From IMG/VR virus record IMGVR_UViG_3300028326_000008, positions 1 through 44,489 of that record: a stretch of 44,489 nucleotides of DNA; one strand, written 5' to 3'. Every line of letters starts with the position of its first letter. Within the stretch, counting starts at the first letter, position 1. This DNA comes from a virus. Its lineage: Duplodnaviria > Caudoviricetes. Both the position numbers and the translations under genes were made by a program. The notes under the pieces were generated by a model that worked only from the letters and a program-made list of their open reading frames with translations, made no database searches and was not told where the DNA came from. Positions 21,510-44,239 of this stretch are shown here, one piece after another.

Positions 21510-22262
21510 CTAGGAGGTCTTTATTTTTCGCATCAACACTTTACATCTCGAAAGGTAGTTATCAATTATTGGACTTGTGGGCGACTTAAATTCATCAATT
21601 CTGCGATAAGTTTCCTCCCACCAATCAGGTTGAACTACATAATCGGAAGTTACCATCCTTTCCAATTGCATGTGAGCTGCCTTCATCCTAGACTCAATTT
21701 CTTTAATATGGCCTAATGCATTTTCAGTCAAATTATTTTTCATATCTAAATCATAAATCCTTCTATTAGAAATTATTGAAGAAAATGCAAAATTGAATGC
21801 AGATTGAAAATCTTGTTTCTCACTAAAAGATGTAAATAAAACCCAATTTAATCTATCTTGTGTTTGATATAGCTCCATTGAATTCTTATCAATAATATTC
21901 TCCATAATATTTATCTTTTCTTCTAGATCTTTTTTAAAGCCCTGTTTTAATTCTAATATTTCGAACTTTTGTTTTCTAAATAAGTTCCAAATCCAACCCC
22001 AACTTATTAATCCAGCAATAGTCAGAAGACCTGCTATTATTAAAGAAAAACGGGTGGATTGGTCATTAAGGGCTTCTGAAAAAAATGCCTCTTTGGCCTT
22101 ATAAATAGTAAGTTCTCGCTGCATGGAATCTGCATAAACCTTGTGATATTGTTCGATTGCTACCAATTTGCTATTAACTAATGAATCTTTATTTGTTTTT
22201 GGAGTTGCCTCAATTAATGTTGTATTTAGAACAAAAAACAGGCAAAGAAATAGTGGTTTCAT
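21510..22262 (-). CDS. Moron: exported/membrane protein
   Basis: AT-rich and antisense; signal peptide MKPLFLCLFF; TM FSLIIAGLLTIAGLISWGWIW; TAACTTTG promoter element at 22288-22281. Confidence 0.75.
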   Translation of the reverse strand: MKPLFLCLFFVLNTTLIEATPKTNKDSLVNSKLVAIEQYHKVYADSMQRELTIYKAKEAFFSEALNDQSTRFSLIIAGLLTIAGLISWGWIWNLFRKQKFEILELKQGFKKDLEEKINIMENIIDKNSMELYQTQDRLNWVLFTSFSEKQDFQSAFNFAFSSIISNRRIYDLDMKNNLTENALGHIKEIESRMKAAHMQLERMVTSDYVVQPDWWEETYRRIDEFKSPTSPIIDNYLSRCKVLMRKIKTS

Positions 22263-22283
22263 AAGTAATGTTGTTTTTATCAA

Positions 22284-22359
22284 AGTTATCACATTTTCCC
22301 AAAGGTGCGAACTCCATCCTTCAAATTAATGCCAAGCCTTTATAGCCTCAATACCTTGC
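22284..22359 (+). promoter_or_regulatory. Putative late promoter of the portal gene
   Basis: Dyad, CCTTCAAATT, 24 nt, TACCTTGC; shared with 26018-26093. Confidence 0.55.
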
Positions 22360-28396: not shown

Positions 28397-28416
28397 AAGG
28401 GGGAGCAATCCCCCTT
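28397..28416 (+). terminator. Hairpin after the capsid gene (terminator or mRNA stabiliser)
   Basis: AAGGGGGA-GCAA-TCCCCCTT. Confidence 0.65.
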
Positions 28417-28771: not shown

Positions 28772-29170
28772 ATGAAAAAGTTTATTGCAATGCTGATGGT
28801 TTTCGGGGCTATGCTCCTGATGCCTTTTGCCCTTTTGGCCTCTGATGGTAGCAACGATGCGGGGCCTATTAGCAGCATCTTCGTCACTTTCGTGACCCTC
28901 GTAGCCGCTATTCCGCTGGTTGTAGAAGCGGTAAAAAAGGTAATCAAAACCGACATCAAAATCATTAACCAGATCATCTCGTGGATTACGGGAATTGCCT
29001 TGACAATGGCGGGTTGGTGGCTCGGGTTCGGGTTCTTGGTTGGGCTGGTCTGGTGGCACGCGCTGATAGTTGGGCTGTGTGCATCACTTGCCGCTAATGG
29101 GGTTTACGATACAAGCATTTACGAGTATATCCTTCGAGCGGTGGGCATTCTGAAACCACTAAGCAAATAA
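28772..29170 (+). CDS. Multi-TM holin/antiholin-like protein
   Basis: Four hydrophobic segments; LAANGVYD. Confidence 0.7.
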   Translation: MKKFIAMLMVFGAMLLMPFALLASDGSNDAGPISSIFVTFVTLVAAIPLVVEAVKKVIKTDIKIINQIISWITGIALTMAGWWLGFGFLVGLVWWHALIVGLCASLAANGVYDTSIYEYILRAVGILKPLSK

Positions 29171-29176
29171 AGGATT

Positions 29177-29686
29177 ATGAGACAGCTGGAATTCATACAA
29201 CGGCTTTTCAACTATAGCGAAATGAAGGTGCAAGTGGCAGCATTTTATGGCGTAATCTTTTCAGGAATTTGCGCCTTCAGTGAGGGGTTTATGGGCATCT
29301 CTGGGAGCCTGTTCGTTCTCCTGTTCATCATCATGATTACTGACTACATCACAGGTCTTCAGGCATCAAAAAAGGAGGGACAGAAGTTCATCAGCAAAAG
29401 GGGATTGCAGTGGGTATTTAAGTTCGGAAGCTATATGGTATTTCTGGCTGTCTCCTACATGGTTCGAAGAGAGCTGCTAATTAATCATTTGGACATGCTT
29501 GAAATACCATTCAAGCTAATCCATTTCTACGTTTTAATCCACATTTTTTGGTGGGAGCTGAAGAGCATTGATGAAAACTTTGAAAGGCTCGGCTACTCCT
29601 TCAGGGTACTGAAGCTGGCGGATAGCCTATTTAAGGTAGTGAAGGGGATTTTTAAACGAAAAATGGAGGAAGAAAGTGGAAAGTAA
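29177..29686 (+). CDS. Holin (phage holin family 4-like)
   Basis: DYITG, ELKSIDEN, TM helices. Confidence 0.8.
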   Translation: MRQLEFIQRLFNYSEMKVQVAAFYGVIFSGICAFSEGFMGISGSLFVLLFIIMITDYITGLQASKKEGQKFISKRGLQWVFKFGSYMVFLAVSYMVRRELLINHLDMLEIPFKLIHFYVLIHIFWWELKSIDENFERLGYSFRVLKLADSLFKVVKGIFKRKMEEESGK

Positions 29687-30197
29687 GCTACCCTTTGAGG
29701 AAAAGGTAAAGCAGAATCGCGAGGCGTTTCTGGATCGAGTTAGGACCATTTCAAAGCAGCTGGGTATTAGACCAGAATGGCTAATGCTTGCTATGAATAT
29801 TGAAACAGCCGGTACTTTCAGGGCTGACAGTCAAAACCCAATGAGCCACGCAACTGGACTGATTCAGTTTATGCCGCACACAGCTATAAGCCTTGGCACA
29901 ACCTGCGATAATTTGAAGTCCATGACCAATGTGCAGCAGCTCGACTACGTGCTGAAGTATATGAAAACCTACAGCGGCAAGATGAACTCCTTTGAGGATG
30001 TTTACCTGAGTATATTTTACCCTGCTGCGGTTGGTAAGCCAGATTCATACCAGCTTGGTGCAACAGCTGAAATGCGGCGTAAGATTGCGCTCCAAAACTC
30101 AGCATACGATCAGAATAAGGATGCGGTAGTGACAAAAGCAGAGGTCAAATTCGCTATCCGAAAGTTCATTCCTAAAGGATTTGAGGGGGTATTCTAG
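29676..30197 (+). CDS. Endolysin, lytic transglycosylase/lysozyme-like
   Basis: IETAG, ATGLIQFMPHTA, QQLDYV. Confidence 0.85.
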   Translation: MESKLPFEEKVKQNREAFLDRVRTISKQLGIRPEWLMLAMNIETAGTFRADSQNPMSHATGLIQFMPHTAISLGTTCDNLKSMTNVQQLDYVLKYMKTYSGKMNSFEDVYLSIFYPAAVGKPDSYQLGATAEMRRKIALQNSAYDQNKDAVVTKAEVKFAIRKFIPKGFEGVF

Positions 30198-31294: not shown

Positions 31295-31798
31295 ATGGCA
31301 AAGAAATTCACACGAGGGTTACAATCCCTCAAGTTTGCACCCGCCTCGACAGATGGAACCATGCCAACGGAAGGGCTTGTCGCCGTCGACTGGTCCAAGG
31401 AAGGATCAGTAACGATCAACATTGGGGAGGCGGAGGAAACCAAGATCAACATCGAGGAGGCTGATACTGCGCTGAGGGTGCTCTACGGAAGTAGGGATGT
31501 CAACATCACCGCTGAAATCTACAATACCTCTCTTGATTCGATGGCACAGTTCTTTGGTGGAGAAGTAGCTGTAAGCGAATGGACACCTGACGCAGAGATG
31601 GCTGCCGAAAACCAAGCTGTCGAGCTTACCACGCGCTCAGATTCCGGAAAGGCGATGAAAATCAACATTCCTGCTGCAGCAATTATGGCTTCCATGGGCG
31701 GGAATCTTACGAAAAAGGATGGCTTGACCATCAAGCTGAAGATTACCCCGCTTATCGTGGTTGCCGGTACGCCTCCATGGACTTGGGAAGAAGTCTAG
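31295..31798 (+). CDS. Major tail (tube) protein
   Basis: Synteny; acidic, beta-rich, 167 aa. Confidence 0.75.
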   Translation: MAKKFTRGLQSLKFAPASTDGTMPTEGLVAVDWSKEGSVTINIGEAEETKINIEEADTALRVLYGSRDVNITAEIYNTSLDSMAQFFGGEVAVSEWTPDAEMAAENQAVELTTRSDSGKAMKINIPAAAIMASMGGNLTKKDGLTIKLKITPLIVVAGTPPWTWEEV

Positions 31799-31844
31799 GA
31801 AGCTAGGAGCATTGAAGGGGGTTCGAATCCCCCTTATTCCACCA
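31785..31844 (+). ncRNA. tRNA-like element without an anticodon arm
   Basis: T-arm GGGGG-TTCGAAT-CCCCC, 7-nt acceptor strand, ACCA. Confidence 0.5.
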
Positions 31845-31859
31845 CTAATACTTACAAAA

Positions 31860-32357
31860 ATGAGTGAACAGGTAGCTAAAACGCTTACAGAGGAGCCAAT
31901 CCAGTTTGAAATAAGGCCAAGAAGAGCAGGGTTGATGAAGGTGCTTGAGCGGCTAAGAATTCTTAAAAAAACGAGGTCTTTTAGCATATACCCTGCAACA
32001 TTGGGCATGCTGGAAGAGATGGCCGCAAATGGTGAAAAGGTGAACATTGGTGACATATCCGGTATAGGTGAAGCTATTTCTTCAGCCAGCAAAAATGGGC
32101 TGCACGTTTGCCGATTTTTAGCCGTGGCCATACTTCGCGATAAGGGGCCTATTGCCAAGGTTCGTGTGGAGATCCTTGCTAGGTTTCTTCACCAAAACCT
32201 AACATCCAAGAGCCTTGCGTCACTGGTTGATGTGGTGATAAAGCAAACCGACATCGCTTTTTTTTTAAGCATTATGAAATCAATCGAAAACAAAGACGGG
32301 AAAGAAAAGAGCGGAAAATCGACAACTCCCCCTGGGGCATCGCAGGCGGAGCCATAA
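31860..32357 (+). CDS. Tail assembly chaperone (gpG-like)
   Basis: Between the tail tube and tape measure genes. Confidence 0.75.
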   Translation: MSEQVAKTLTEEPIQFEIRPRRAGLMKVLERLRILKKTRSFSIYPATLGMLEEMAANGEKVNIGDISGIGEAISSASKNGLHVCRFLAVAILRDKGPIAKVRVEILARFLHQNLTSKSLASLVDVVIKQTDIAFFLSIMKSIENKDGKEKSGKSTTPPGASQAEP

Positions 32358-32506
32358 AGTATTACCGATTCTCCTGGGACTTTGTCCTTTGGGGAATATC
32401 GATGCAAAACCTGATGCTGCTGATGCAGGCCATACAGGATTATGAGGATAGCGATGAGGTGGATGAGGACGAATTTGAGGAACTGTTTAAGGGGAATAAG
32501 CGATGA
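32261..32506 (+). CDS. -1 frameshift extension of the tail chaperone (gpGT-like)
   Basis: T TTT TTA slippery site; the -1 frame is open to TGA 32504-32506 (…SPWGIAGGAIKYYRFSWDFVLWGISMQNLMLL…). Confidence 0.7.
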   Translation, partial: FFKHYEINRKQRRERKERKIDNSPWGIAGGAIKYYRFSWDFVLWGISMQNLMLLMQAIQDYEDSDEVDEDEFEELFKGNKR

Positions 32507-35500
32507 GTGGTGCAGTTGACGAAAGCCTATACTTTGTAAGCCGAATAGACCTAGATGGTCTGAGAGGGGATGTAGCCAAAATTGAGCAGCAGCTGAGGGG
32601 AATAACCAGCACGGCCAAGGGTGAAGCGCAAAAGTTCGACGATACCTATAAACGGTTGACTCAGGTAGTTGCTGGATACTTTTCCCTAACATTTGGAGCA
32701 CACCTTGCCTCAAGTATTATTGAAGTTCGTGGTCAATTCCAGCAGCTTGACATTGCATTTACTACCATGCTCGGTAGTAAGGAGAAATCATCAAAGTTAA
32801 TGGCCCAAACGGTTGAACTTGCGGCCAAGACACCCTACTCACTCCTTGAAGTTGCACAAGTGGAAAAAGGCTTAATCGCCTTTGGTGAAGATGCTTCCAA
32901 TGTTGCTGATACCATGACGCGCTTGGGAAATATTTCCTCTGGAACTGGGGCCAATATTGGTGAATTGGGTCAGGCCTACGGAAAGGTTATGAGCAAGGGA
33001 AAGATGCAGGCAGAAGAGCTCAACCAGTTCACAGAGCGAGGGGTTCCTATCGTTGCTGAACTTGCCAAAATGTATGGGGTTACTGCGGCTGAAGTTTACA
33101 AGATGGTGGAGCAGGGAAAGGTTGGCTTTCCTGAATTGCAGCAGGTTATTAAGAACGTTACCGATGAAGGAGGAATGTTCTACAACCTCATGGAGAAGCA
33201 ATCCACCACGTTGACAGGTAAGATTTCCAACCTTGGTGATGCGATCGACAACATGTATAATGACCTCGCTGCAGGAAACGATGGTATCGTTGGGGATAGC
33301 ATTGACGGTCTTATTTCGCTAGTGAACAACTACGAAACGGTGCTCAAGGTATTGGAGAGCATGGTTGTGGCCTATGGTGCTTACAAAACGGCTCTGATTG
33401 TCAATTCAATGACAATGAAGGGACTTACCATTGCTGAGAACCTTCACCGTATTGCAATGATTGCAAAGGAAAAGGCGCTGAAGCTGGCCACTATTGCACA
33501 GAATGCTTTCAATAAAGCCGCTATGATGAATCCCCTTGGGCTGATTATTGGTGGTTTAGTTGCGGCTACCGGTGCACTGCTTATTTATGGAAAGTCCTCA
33601 AAATCGGTTGCAGAATCACAGGATGCAGCCGCTGGTTATACGGAGGAATACTCCAAGAAGCTTACAGAGCAGCGGGCCGAACTTGAAAAAAACATTTCAA
33701 TTGCTTCAAATAACTACAAGTCGCTCGAGGAAAGGAATAGCGCACTTAAAAGAGTCAAGGACTCTAGCAATGGATATCTCAATAGCCTTACGCTTGAGAA
33801 CCTGAAAACATCAGAAGGAACCACTCTCCTTAAGAATTACAATGAAGAGCTGGAGCGCAAGATTCGTTCTGACGCCTTGGCCGACAAAAAAACGGCCATA
33901 TTTAAGCAGAAGGCCGACCTTGAAATTCAAAATGATAAGCTCAATAGCGCTATAGTGGCAGTTCCTACCACTGAAATGCAGGAAATCAGCAACAAGCAAA
34001 ATCAGCTTGCCCTTAAAATCAACCAAGATTTAATTGCTGGCCTTGATACTCAAATAGCCAAACTTGATGATATTGATAAGCGGTTAAGCGCAGGACCTAA
34101 AGGTAACGACAAGGACATCCCTCAAACCATTGCCGATATTGACAAAAAGATCAAGGAGTTAAGGGATGCCCAGCTAACGTCAACAATCAAGAGTGAATAT
34201 GAATCCTATGAGGCTAAAATAGCAGTATTGGAGGCCAAAAAGGAGGCCATTACTGGTAAAAAAGCAGATAAGGAAGCCTCTAAAGATGAGAAGGATGCTG
34301 CCAAAACTGAGCTAGATGCACTCAAGGAAGAATTGGACAACAAGAAGTATTTCTACAAGGACGATTTAGCTGCATACCAGCAATACCTTGCAGACAAAGA
34401 AGCCCTTCTTTTTGGTTCTGGGAAGGATGATCAGCTGAAGGCCGTTCATGATGCACAGAAGGATAACGACAGGGAGATTGCCCAGAACTTGGCTGACTTA
34501 GCAAAGAAGTATGAAACCTTTGAGCAGCAAAAAAAGGATGTTTCTGCCAGGTATGCTAAAGAACGGCTAACCCTAATTGAGGCAGGGAAAACCGAGGAAA
34601 TCGCCCAGCTGGATAAGGCGGAGAAGGAAGAGCTAAAGAACATGGAAACCAACCATGTTAAGGAGAATGCCTCCTACCAATACCTATTTGAAAGCATCGA
34701 TAAGCTTAGCGTTGATGCACTGAAAAAAAGAATTGCCCGGCTAAAGCAGGATTTGGCCATGACGGCCACTACCGCAGAGGAGAAGTTGGCTTTAGAAAAG
34801 GGATTGGCAGAGGCCAGCGAGGCTCTTGTGTCAAGGGCTCCAATGGCTGCACTAAAAGAGTTGAGTGCAAGGGCAAAAGAGCTAAAGAAGCAAATCAAGG
34901 AGGCAAAAACGGATGAGGAGAAAGCCCCACTTCAGGCAGAGCTGGATGGTGTCACCCAGAAGAAGGGGGAGGCTTTAGCAGATGTATTTGGTAACGTTTC
35001 AAGCCGTCTAGGTGAGGCAAAGGAGCTGGCTGGAATGTTCAGTTCGTCCCTAGGTGAGGCTGTAGGTATGGCCTCCGATTTAGCCGGTTCATTTGCTCAA
35101 ATGGCATCCGGTAACTATATCGCTGGGGCCATTGGTATAGCAACAACCCTCGCTAAAGTCATTGTGGGAAATCAAGGGCCTAGCTACGCGGAAAGGGAAG
35201 CGGCCAAAACAAAAGTCCTAACCGATGCAATTACTGAAACGAACGCTGCACTGGAAAGACAAATAAGGCTTACTGAGTTACTTCAGGGATTGCAAAAGAG
35301 TGCTGGCTATGCCGATGCTATACAGGAAACTGCTGATGCGTTCAGTAAGACCACGACGGATTTAGAAAACGAGCTAAAGGCGTTTACCAGTAAAATAAAC
35401 GATACCAAGGCTGTATTGATGAATAATTTTATGAAGGAAAAATTCACCAACATCCTTGGAACAACAGATGAAGGCCAAAAGCAACTTGCAGATATACGAG

Positions 35501-36375
35501 CTCTTCTAAATAGTAAGGATTTTAAGGACTTTACAAACGCAGATTGGACTAAGGTAATTGATGCTGCTGCTGGACAGGAAAAAGAAAGGTTACAGAACCT
35601 TTACGATCAATGGATTTCGCTTCAGCAAAAGCAACAAGAATACTTCAATACCTGGGCTGAAGGGCTGACCGGCACATCCTACGATAGCATGGTAGAGGCC
35701 ATTGCATCCGGATTCGAAGATGGTAATTACTCTGCGGAGGAGTTTTCCAAGAACTTCGAAACATTGATGAAAACGGCCATTCTTAACGCGCTAAAAACGC
35801 AGTGGATTGAGGAGCCCATGAAGGAGTGGAACGCACACTTTGCCGACGCCATGAAGGATGGGGTTCTCACCAAGGAGGAGGCTGATAACCTGAAGGCAGA
35901 AATGCAAACCATCAAGGACAATGCTGCGGCAGGATTGGAAGCCATTAACCAAGCCGGCATTGATTTGCTCGGTGACACAACCGATAGCGCAAAAGGTCTC
36001 TCGGGTGCCATTCAGGGCATGAGCCAGGACAGTGCCGATCTCTTGGCTGGCCAGATGGGTGCTATTCGAATACATGTTGCAGATATTGCCGCTGCGATTA
36101 CAGGAAGTTTCAATAGCGACCTGAAAGATGCCTGGAAAACACCAACTGACCTACTAAGCAATACACTCGGGGTAGGCATTGGCAACATGAGCGATAGCCT
36201 CATGCTTATGCAGGAAACATCTGCCAGAGCTAACGATATTCTATTGAATATACAAAACAACACAGCAAGGCTGTGGAACATTGAGGTATTGCTTTCAAAC
36301 TTGAATAGCGGAGGCGTAAGCAATGGTGGTGGATACAACAATTCATTTCGGGAAGACCGAATAATGGGGAGGTAA
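32503..36375 (+). CDS. Tape measure protein
   Basis: 1290 aa; FTTMLGS, AAKTPY, ELNQFTERGVPI tape-measure domain. Confidence 0.95.
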   Translation: MSGAVDESLYFVSRIDLDGLRGDVAKIEQQLRGITSTAKGEAQKFDDTYKRLTQVVAGYFSLTFGAHLASSIIEVRGQFQQLDIAFTTMLGSKEKSSKLMAQTVELAAKTPYSLLEVAQVEKGLIAFGEDASNVADTMTRLGNISSGTGANIGELGQAYGKVMSKGKMQAEELNQFTERGVPIVAELAKMYGVTAAEVYKMVEQGKVGFPELQQVIKNVTDEGGMFYNLMEKQSTTLTGKISNLGDAIDNMYNDLAAGNDGIVGDSIDGLISLVNNYETVLKVLESMVVAYGAYKTALIVNSMTMKGLTIAENLHRIAMIAKEKALKLATIAQNAFNKAAMMNPLGLIIGGLVAATGALLIYGKSSKSVAESQDAAAGYTEEYSKKLTEQRAELEKNISIASNNYKSLEERNSALKRVKDSSNGYLNSLTLENLKTSEGTTLLKNYNEELERKIRSDALADKKTAIFKQKADLEIQNDKLNSAIVAVPTTEMQEISNKQNQLALKINQDLIAGLDTQIAKLDDIDKRLSAGPKGNDKDIPQTIADIDKKIKELRDAQLTSTIKSEYESYEAKIAVLEAKKEAITGKKADKEASKDEKDAAKTELDALKEELDNKKYFYKDDLAAYQQYLADKEALLFGSGKDDQLKAVHDAQKDNDREIAQNLADLAKKYETFEQQKKDVSARYAKERLTLIEAGKTEEIAQLDKAEKEELKNMETNHVKENASYQYLFESIDKLSVDALKKRIARLKQDLAMTATTAEEKLALEKGLAEASEALVSRAPMAALKELSARAKELKKQIKEAKTDEEKAPLQAELDGVTQKKGEALADVFGNVSSRLGEAKELAGMFSSSLGEAVGMASDLAGSFAQMASGNYIAGAIGIATTLAKVIVGNQGPSYAEREAAKTKVLTDAITETNAALERQIRLTELLQGLQKSAGYADAIQETADAFSKTTTDLENELKAFTSKINDTKAVLMNNFMKEKFTNILGTTDEGQKQLADIRALLNSKDFKDFTNADWTKVIDAAAGQEKERLQNLYDQWISLQQKQQEYFNTWAEGLTGTSYDSMVEAIASGFEDGNYSAEEFSKNFETLMKTAILNALKTQWIEEPMKEWNAHFADAMKDGVLTKEEADNLKAEMQTIKDNAAAGLEAINQAGIDLLGDTTDSAKGLSGAIQGMSQDSADLLAGQMGAIRIHVADIAAAITGSFNSDLKDAWKTPTDLLSNTLGVGIGNMSDSLMLMQETSARANDILLNIQNNTARLWNIEVLLSNLNSGGVSNGGGYNNSFREDRIMGR

Positions 36376-43031: not shown

Positions 43032-43110
43032 TAAAGTTTAGTTTTGTTCGAAGTGTTATTCAAAGCTCCTTTATTAATGCTGAACATGGCTGTTTGAAAG
43101 GCAATTTTAT
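43032..43110 (+). repeat. Imperfect direct repeat, copy 1
   Basis: Exact core TGGCTGTTTGAAAGGCAAT at 43087-43105. Confidence 0.85.
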
Positions 43111-44187
43111 ATGAAACAACTAATTACTTTCATCTATGCAATACTCCTAGGGAGTATCGTATTTGGTCAAAGCATTGAGGCCACGACCAAAACTGGTCAA
43201 AAGATCGTTCTCTACCAAGATAAAACATGGGAGTATTCTGATGTTCTAGCCTTAAAGGAAATAACCCCATATTATGGAGTTGTAGGCCTCAAAAGCCAAG
43301 GAACAGTGCCAAACAATCTGGTCGTTAGCCATACAGATTACATTCTTTCCTACAATCCAAACTATAGGCTTGCTTCATGGGTTTCCTACGAGCTGACCAA
43401 GGAAATGCTTCTTAAGCAACCACGAATTGCCAGGGCTGACAAGTTTACGCGCGACCCAGCCATTCCACAAAATATGTCGGCCATGGATGCTGATTACCGA
43501 AAGTCAGGCTACGACCGTGGCCACCTTTGCCCTGCAGCCGATATGGCACATTCTGAAAAAACTATGGAGGAATCCTTTTACTACTCTAACATGACACCTC
43601 AAAAGCCTGGATTCAACCGAGGCGTGTGGAATAGACTGGAGGATCAGGTGCGAATGTGGGCGCTTGACAATGACAAAATTTATGTTGCTACAGGGCCAGT
43701 GCTCAGTGCTAAGTATGTCACAAAGGAAAAGAGCCTATATGTTCCAAAATACTTTTACAAGGTTCTTTTAGATTACGAAGCACCAGAGGTTAAAGGAATA
43801 GGCTTTATTATCCCTAACGAGAGTTCGAGTGAACCACTAAGCTCTTTCGCTGTCTCCATCGATAGCGTAGAAGCAATGACCGGTATTGATTTCTTTTCTG
43901 CCTTACCGGATAAAGAGGAAAAGATTATTGAATCCGTATGCGATTATAGCCTCTGGGACAAACAGAGCTCATCTGTATACAGCGCTCGACCGCCAGCCTA
44001 TAACAGCACTAGCACCGATGTAACGGCACCCAAAGATTCCACCAGTTCAGGAAAGAGGTGCAAGGCCATAACGAAGGCTGGAACGCAGTGCAAACGAATG
44101 GCTGAACCTGGTAGCGACTATTGCTGGCAGCATAAGCAGATATACGAAAATAAGGACAATACTAAAGTGTTTTTCTTGAAGAGTTAA
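43111..44187 (+). CDS. Secreted DNA/RNA non-specific endonuclease (NucA/EndoG family) with a C-terminal Zn-finger
   Basis: Signal peptide; SGYDRGHL, SNMTPQ, FNRGVW..LE; C-x9-C-x10-C-x2-H tail. Confidence 0.93.
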   Translation: MKQLITFIYAILLGSIVFGQSIEATTKTGQKIVLYQDKTWEYSDVLALKEITPYYGVVGLKSQGTVPNNLVVSHTDYILSYNPNYRLASWVSYELTKEMLLKQPRIARADKFTRDPAIPQNMSAMDADYRKSGYDRGHLCPAADMAHSEKTMEESFYYSNMTPQKPGFNRGVWNRLEDQVRMWALDNDKIYVATGPVLSAKYVTKEKSLYVPKYFYKVLLDYEAPEVKGIGFIIPNESSSEPLSSFAVSIDSVEAMTGIDFFSALPDKEEKIIESVCDYSLWDKQSSSVYSARPPAYNSTSTDVTAPKDSTSSGKRCKAITKAGTQCKRMAEPGSDYCWQHKQIYENKDNTKVFFLKS

Positions 44188-44239
44188 TCAAGGTTCTTTA
44201 ACAAGGTTGAACTTGGCTGTTTGAAAGGCAATATTTTAT
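44163..44239 (+). repeat. Imperfect direct repeat, copy 2
   Basis: Exact core at 44214-44232. Confidence 0.85.

Follow-up and report, generated by a model that had tools for sequence, protein, structure and literature searches.

A tRNA top-half motif at the tube/chaperone junction of a Bacteroidota siphophage and its possible role in processing the tail message

A tRNA-like motif between two tail genes

Given that a sequence resembling the 3′ end of a tRNA, encoded CCA included, lies between two structural genes of a phage, we asked what kind of element it is and what it would do to the message that carries it. The window is the whole stretch of DNA analysed, 44,489 nt long (IMG/VR record IMGVR_UViG_3300028326_000008). 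This 44.5-kb phage record carries genes for terminase, portal, capsid, holin, tail and tape measure; its named relatives by capsid are mostly Bacteroidota prophages, and the phage is a Bacteroidota siphophage. The tail module runs from neck through completion, tube and chaperone to tape measure, and the 61-nt gap between the tube and chaperone genes holds the element. The features concerned are the following:

28397..28416, + strand: hairpin after the capsid gene, with a GCAA loop, the same G5/C5 stem and no T-loop or CCA (comparison element)
31295..31798, + strand: major tail (tube) gene, 167 aa, last codons W-E-E-V-TAG (by homology and gene order)
31771..31803, + strand: predicted hairpin across the last tube codons and the stop (pair probability 0.999-1.0 in three context lengths; MFE)
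31785..31806, + strand: acceptor 5′ strands of the original prediction (from 31785 or 31786) with a D-like hairpin, an alternative fold inside the coding end
31806..31844, + strand: predicted 39-nt tRNA top-half minihelix (pair probability 0.53-0.89)
31817..31833, + strand: T-arm of five G-C pairs with the consensus T-loop TTCGAAT, equal to the T-arm of Bacteroidales tRNA-Ser
31841..31844, + strand: discriminator A (31841) and encoded CCA (31842-31844), an RCCA motif (from the sequence)
31860..32357, + strand: tail assembly chaperone gene, its ATG 15 nt 3′ of the CCA (PHROG 12247; precedes the tape measure gene)
32258..32506, + strand: run of nine T (32258-32266) and −1 frame open to 32506, overlapping the tape-measure start (from the sequence)
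32503..36375, + strand: tape measure gene (PHROG 9959, E 1e-159)

In Porphyromonas phage phage005b the tube protein matched a gene product annotated as major tail protein (26.5% identity, E 8e-7); Pfam and PDB sequence searches with it returned no matches, and its structure was predicted with low confidence (pLDDT 45). Known tail chaperone genes use a frameshift, and on this basis the T-run and open −1 frame at 32258-32506 likely mark one in the chaperone gene. Elsewhere in the window, holin-like and lysozyme-like genes lie within the head-tail module (28772-30197, between the adaptor and head-closure genes), and a 260-aa gene on the − strand (21510-22292, between terminase and portal) had no PHROG or Pfam match. 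Furthermore, a non-specific endonuclease gene (PF01223, 43111-44187) stands between two 50-nt direct repeats (82% identity; 43063-44239), an arrangement that resembles a swappable cassette.

The original prediction had described a perfect T-arm followed by exactly 7 nt, a discriminator and CCA, and all of these parts were found at 31817-31844, with the 7-nt acceptor 3′ strand (31834-31840) directly 3′ of the T-arm. No other T-arm occurs in the genome on either strand. Among 10,000 order-2 Markov genomes, the T-arm was counted 1,430 times, the T-arm with a correctly placed CCA 20 times, and both together with an acceptor match of at least 6/7 on 12 occasions; the chance expectation for such a motif in simulated genomes is ~0.001-0.002 per genome.

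Judged as a tRNA (RF00005), the element has the T-arm, 7-nt acceptor strand, discriminator and CCA, and lacks the D and anticodon arms and a tRNA call by ARAGORN or Rfam. ARAGORN reported no tRNA or tmRNA gene, and a canonical tRNA was rejected on that null. The Rfam tmRNA model RF00023 matched 31785-31844 with 20.1 bits (E 3.2e-5) against a gathering score of 47, and 324 model positions were replaced by 22 nt in the alignment. The likeness to the tRNA-like domain of tmRNA lies in the T-arm and the U70-C71-C72-A73-CCA end, but the element has neither an mRNA-like domain nor pseudoknots. The tmRNAs of four Bacteroidales genomes from the host group end differently, and a tmRNA or two-piece tmRNA was rejected on this difference and on the score. 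BLASTN of a 101-nt region against phages gave weak matches (E 0.3-3), and the matches listed fall on tRNA genes. Because of the simulation counts, the Rfam score below threshold and the ARAGORN null, we regard the motif as real and uncommon, yet neither a tRNA nor a tmRNA.

Predicted fold and resemblance to tRNA-Ser

Fold probabilities in this section are predictions from model energies. The predicted minihelix starts 7 nt 3′ of the tube stop, outside the gene, and is ordered as four pairs (GGAG with 31837-31840), a 5x1 internal loop, two A-U pairs, the T-arm, A73 and CCA. Pairing of GGAG (31806-31809) with the acceptor strand is predicted at 0.53-0.71 with 45-135 nt of upstream mRNA, and at 0.78-0.89 when the coding region is kept unpaired, as under a ribosome. 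The T-arm itself is predicted to pair stably (0.97), and its stem grows to 7 bp with AA/TT.

The original prediction had folded the region differently, as an anticodon-less tRNA mimic with a D-like arm, and the pairings on which that fold was built do exist in the sequence. The strand from 31786 pairs at 6 of 7 positions, with six Watson-Crick pairs; the register from 31785 is likewise 6/7 paired and comprises G1-C72, G2-C71, G3.U70 and a second G.U; and a 4-bp CTAG/CTAG hairpin can be drawn at 31795-31806. In an isolated 60-mer the two registers are predicted at 0.29 and 0.50. Once 45-135 nt of upstream mRNA are included, however, the hairpin at 31771-31803 closes over the stop codon and takes up these bases, so that both registers, along with the D-like stem, drop to 0.000. 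On these energies the anticodon-less fold is probably wrong. The proposed alanine identity fares no better: G3.U70 is restricted to the 31785 register, which has probability 0.000 in context, whereas the predicted minihelix carries A3-U70 and no G3.U70. The 5′ strand also doubles as the tube codons W-E-E-V, and a C-terminal W-x-E/L-V occurs in 10/11 rows of aligned tubes (endings over the 11 rows: W-E-E-V 3, W-E-L-V 2, W-A-E-V 2, W-S-E-V 2, W-V-E-V 1, I-S-E-V 1), so protein coding can explain this strand.

The T-arm and acceptor strand closely match host-group tRNA genes. Together they form a 24-mer found in 45 of 301 Bacteroidales genomes at 1-2 mismatches and in none exactly; a reversed control gave 0, and all six of the 24-mer loci checked (6/6) were tRNA-Ser. 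Between Bacteroidales tRNA-Ser and the element, the 17-nt T-arm is identical and 6/7 acceptor 3′ bases are the same, and the 5′ end of one Bacteroidales tRNA-Ser(GCT) equals the strand from 31786. Unlike these tRNAs, the element has no D, anticodon or variable arm. Its A-CCA was not simply copied, because in the Bacteroidales tRNA-Ser genes the discriminator is G73 and just 1/16 rows encodes CCA. An exact complement of the acceptor strand lies near 32493, within coding sequence.

A resemblance within the same genome speaks against a tRNA origin. The hairpin after the capsid gene, which had been noted for its similar G5/C5 stem, is present with its GCAA loop, and it has 7 + 11 nt in common with the element hairpin, the longest such match among 21 rows; the element may therefore come from an ordinary hairpin. 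A near-identical G-first GCAA hairpin without a U-tract follows the capsid gene in L095, so this hairpin type is native to the family and need not be a duplicate, and several relatives have G-first hairpins without U-tracts after their capsid genes. The terminator scan lists the post-capsid hairpin, unlike the element: the element hairpin has no U-tract and is unlisted as an intrinsic terminator on both strands, and a minus-strand terminator was rejected as none is listed there.

The tube/chaperone junction in related phages

Copies of the element DNA were found in sequences 99.7-100% identical to the phage record only, hence they offer no covariation. Contigs from viruses, metagenomes and genomes, scanned with the tube protein or alignments of it, yielded near-identical copies or nothing. 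Close tube homologues amount to ten proteins at 57-70% identity, and profile searches of 401 and 133 Bacteroidales genomes found distant tubes only (in 6 and 4 genomes), with no T-arm in their gaps. The junction survey accordingly covered more distant phages, reached via capsid and tube alignments and sampled as the best 80 of 133 type II loci and the best 80 of 458 capsid loci. A quick tree placed the tubes in two groups, type I, which includes this phage's, and type II ('SWGKP' type, Paludibacter prophages included); the two are homologous (HHalign 85%, E 5.7e-6).

Gaps were tallied by cluster at 80% identity, each gap ending at the first long ORF, so that some were shortened, and L176/L177 and the tRNAs of L100 were missed. 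A T-arm was found in the type I gap of 1/71 clusters, the sole one being this phage's (0/70 others). When the tally was repeated with a fixed 200 nt after the stop, none of the 81 other distinct type I tubes was followed by a T-arm. Most type I gaps instead hold a hairpin or terminator, and 33/54 of their hairpins have at least 4 T in the next 8 nt.

In type II, by comparison, the gap carries a T-arm in 16/30 clusters, against 0/70 for type I (Fisher p 1e-10, uncorrected for kinship). Strict T-arms numbered 18 distinct examples in the 10,000 nt after 50 type II tube stops, versus 2 in 272,074 nt of flanks. The motif described here is a real and uncommon tRNA top half at a junction where tRNA-like elements recur.

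The type II elements range from whole to decayed. Rfam searches of 17 type II loci gave eight tRNA matches (38.7-74.1 bits), L183 being an intact tRNA at 74 bits, and nine loci without a match at E 0.05; the Rfam tRNA search found none for the elements of L151, L158, L186, L187, L202, L219 and L018. By eye, the gradation runs from intact Met- or Thr-like tRNAs through variable or wrong-sized anticodon loops to L202 and L219, in which merely 33-35 nt separate acceptor from T-arm. In the Paludibacter group, acceptor and T-arm are kept and the anticodon loop varies. Acceptors in type II are paired at 6-7 of 7 positions, and T-stems are paired in 54/55 cells with both-side changes at 4/5 pairs, a covariation that is partly circular because paired T-stems were the criterion for picking the rows, which moreover go back to several tRNAs. 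Many of these elements have a hairpin just 5′, which in L202, L021 and L018 spans the stop codon, and the distance from the element to the following ATG is mostly 14-28 nt (18 nt here). The order of hairpin, element and short spacer to ATG is common to type II and the layout predicted for this phage. Encoded CCA, prominent in the original prediction, is no class feature, being present in only 2/22 elements. What the type II junction keeps is the top half and not decoding, which points to processing as the selected trait.

Several further observations concern this clade. Intact, degenerate or tandem tRNAs lie between its tube and chaperone genes (L151-L219, L018, L019, L068, L100), frequently with a G-first hairpin ahead of them, and ARAGORN labels several of the elements tRNA-SeC or Asn owing to their drifting anticodon loops. 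The gaps of L179, L181 and L182 (~1945-2030) and L228 (1945-2170) have a common short motif and small hairpins, with no standard T-arm and no Rfam match, and possibly hold another structured RNA. A ribozyme in type II gaps lacking a T-arm was also considered, but Rfam found none in 12 loci.

An RNase P signal and its alternatives

We consider an RNase P cut signal likely because the junction in relatives holds either a terminator or a whole or decayed tRNA. Stated in full, the proposal is that the element acts as a t-element-like RNase P site that splits the tube mRNA from the chaperone/tape-measure mRNA and stands in a terminator's place; on this our judgement is evenly balanced. Host RNase P would cut 5′ of G31806 in the predicted minihelix. 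The upstream piece would retain an intact tube frame and end 7 nt after the stop, inside the 31771-31803 hairpin, and this stop-codon hairpin would slow 3′ exonucleases and so protect the 3′ end of the tube mRNA. The downstream chaperone/tape-measure piece would begin with a 5′ end made by processing and would decay independently, and with such separate decay the tube would outnumber chaperone and tape measure. The cut would thereby do the job of the terminators in type I relatives. A processing signal had been among the original suggestions, and it has gained comparative support from the intact-to-degenerate tRNAs at the same junction in the homologous tube clade; the cleavage itself is a prediction. 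For this copy of the element, a function is predicted as likely.

What RNase P is known to accept bears on this proposal. E. coli RNase P cleaves hairpin substrates that combine acceptor stem, T-stem and T-loop. It measures ~12 bp, its P15-loop GGU pairs with the RCCA of the substrate, and phage RNAs and mRNAs are among its further targets (PMC11143913); in a model hairpin, an A at −1 left the cleavage site unshifted (PMC3874170). Against the ~12 stacked pairs from T-loop to G1-C72 with RCCA, the minihelix has 11 predicted pairs, one 5x1 loop and RCCA. Its departures are that 5x1 internal loop within the acceptor stem, only four contiguous terminal pairs, an A at −1 and no D-loop. Class A RNase P RNA was found in 4/4 Bacteroidales genomes with related prophages, which may not be this phage's host, and the GGU that pairs with RCCA is kept in the one Bacteroidales RNase P RNA aligned. 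For the RNase P proposal speak also the rarity of the motif in simulated genomes, the concentration of T-arms at the type II junction, the common layout and the missing U-tract. Against it stand the isolation of the element within its own tube type (1/71 clusters), its copies' lack of covariation and its match to the post-capsid hairpin.

A wider reading can be built on the same series. Tailed phages would use tRNA punctuation, the tube/chaperone terminator having repeatedly been swapped for a tRNA that decays towards the RNase P minimum; the series would finish in the 39-nt CCA minihelix, gained independently in a terminator-using clade, and many tail-module 'tRNA genes' would be cutting signals and not decoders. 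We hold this reading tentatively, leaning slightly against it. Within it, tRNA punctuation at the junction would mean that virion protein stoichiometry is set by host tRNA processing.

The main competitor treats the element as a G-first stabilising hairpin of the ordinary kind or as a weak terminator, its T-loop and CCA being coincidental or an inert relic of a tRNA-Ser 3′ end on which no tRNA enzyme acts. The absence of the T-arm from all other type I gaps, most of which hold hairpins, speaks for this, as do the extension of the stem to 7 bp with AA/TT, the 18 nt in common with the post-capsid hairpin, the G-first hairpins without U-tracts after relatives' capsid genes, and the start of the loop with TTC in 5/54 type I hairpins; the relic version can also point to the 24-mer at 1-2 mismatches from tRNA-Ser ends in 45/301 genomes. 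Coincidence, however, needs a 7-nt loop (3/54 type I hairpins, none T-loop-like), the T-loop consensus, the CCA offset and G1-C72/G2-C71 together, for which a rough product, estimated and not computed by a tool, is ~1e-5 per gap; the L095 hairpin weakens the case for duplication, and the G73 and rare CCA (1/16 rows) of tRNA-Ser genes weaken that for simple copying. We think this account unlikely, though it deserves to be taken seriously. Lower still we place a tRNA mimic matured at its 3′ side only, by a cut in the AU-rich spacer with trimming to CCA or by RNase Z after A73; the tube mRNA would then keep the element as its stable tRNA-like 3′ terminus, and the chaperone leader would be very short. 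Twenty of the 22 type II elements lack CCA, as RNase Z substrates do, and here the T-arm is predicted to be stable, whereas the 5′ acceptor strand pairs weakly and would be covered in part by the terminating ribosome; yet an encoded CCA, which inhibits bacterial RNase Z, is present in this element, and in type II a separate hairpin usually stands directly 5′ of the element, as a 5′ cut would need. In favour of a 3′-side cut, plant t-elements guide cleavage by RNase Z as well as by RNase P (PMC1920247). We regard 3′-side maturation as improbable.

Two further accounts fit the data poorly. The original prediction offered, besides a processing signal, a released, mascRNA-like RNA of 59-60 nt starting at 31785/31786, anticodon-less and possibly alanylated via G3.U70, that would decoy synthetases or defences aimed at tRNAs. 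The isolated 60-mer is predicted to adopt its registers, its 31786 strand equals a tRNA-Ser(GCT) 5′ end, the Rfam tmRNA alignment starts at 31785, and plant t-elements can cut within reading frames, as in nad6 and ccmC (PMC1920247). The registers are nevertheless unpopulated in the predicted mRNA context, G3.U70 belongs to the weaker one only, and the W-E-E codons account for the 5′ strand; release would sever the tube gene four codons ahead of its stop and so remove the stop codon, and defences that cut anticodons would meet no anticodon loop. A decoy is accordingly very improbable. The least credible account, which we consider close to dismissible, is an attachment-site core or recombination scar that copies the 3′ end of a tRNA or tmRNA from the host. 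The 3′ ends of tRNA-Ser that match with one mismatch suggest it, but an exact match occurs in 0/301 Bacteroidales genomes and nowhere else in IMG/VR, the four host-group tmRNAs end differently, integration at the element would split the tail operon, and an integrase was found in 0/39 ORFs scanned.

Set beside known systems, the element proposed here as an RNase P site can be compared with several. In the 'SWGKP' gap elements (L018, L019, L021, L068, L100, L159-L219) it finds the same junction, homologous tubes, a T-arm, a preceding hairpin and a spacer to the ATG; these differ in a 6-7 bp acceptor, 33-64 nt of D/anticodon-like sequence and mostly no CCA, and the phage element is shorter, belongs to the other tube clade and has no demonstrable sequence ancestry in common with them. 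In mammalian lncRNAs, an RNase P cut of a tRNA-like unit, mascRNA or menRNA, sets the 3′ end of a structure-guarded upstream RNA. The phage element resembles these in its tRNA-like unit and in a cut, predicted here, that would define the upstream RNA 3′ end, whereas they are eukaryotic, form a cloverleaf of ~60 nt and receive CCA after the cut. The t-elements of plant mitochondria are described as non-decoding tRNA-like structures by mRNA ends, found via GGTTCRANYCC and proposed to guide RNase P/RNase Z (Forner et al. 2007, PMC1920247). The phage element has the GGTTCRANYCC motif within a predicted tRNA-like fold and adjoins a predicted mRNA end; unlike them it lies in a phage late operon, would face an RNA-based bacterial RNase P, encodes CCA and would be a minimal minihelix. 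Membership of the t-element class depends on transcript ends that coincide with those of the element. Non-tRNA substrates of bacterial RNase P include model hairpins, phage M3 RNA, the P1/P7 C4 antisense RNA, T4 gene 32 mRNA and polycistronic mRNAs (PMC11143913, PMC3874170). Of their cleavage determinants, the element has the T-loop and 3′ RCCA and is predicted to form an acceptor/T-stem stack, and the substrates as described in these sources include no tRNA-shaped terminator substitute between structural genes. Full-text literature searches, in a collection with few subscription papers, showed among the papers listed no description of a phage tail-operon tRNA-like processing element.

If the RNase P proposal is true, the element would be a phage counterpart of mitochondrial tRNA punctuation and would give a testable, non-translational reason for odd tRNA genes in small phages; if it is false, the element is an ordinary hairpin. 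With its gradation from intact tRNA down to a 39-nt minihelix, this one junction offers a natural set for studying what RNase P needs inside an mRNA.

tRNA-like sequences also stand elsewhere in the structural modules of the surveyed phages. In a Chitinophaga prophage (L104, 5439-5512), an 80-nt stretch ahead of the scaffold gene contains three T-arm-like hairpins, and for the first of them a 7/7 acceptor match lies 20 nt upstream. Lone Met-like tRNA genes follow a portal or head-morphogenesis gene in L036 (near 871), L119 (near 991) and L120 (near 1910).
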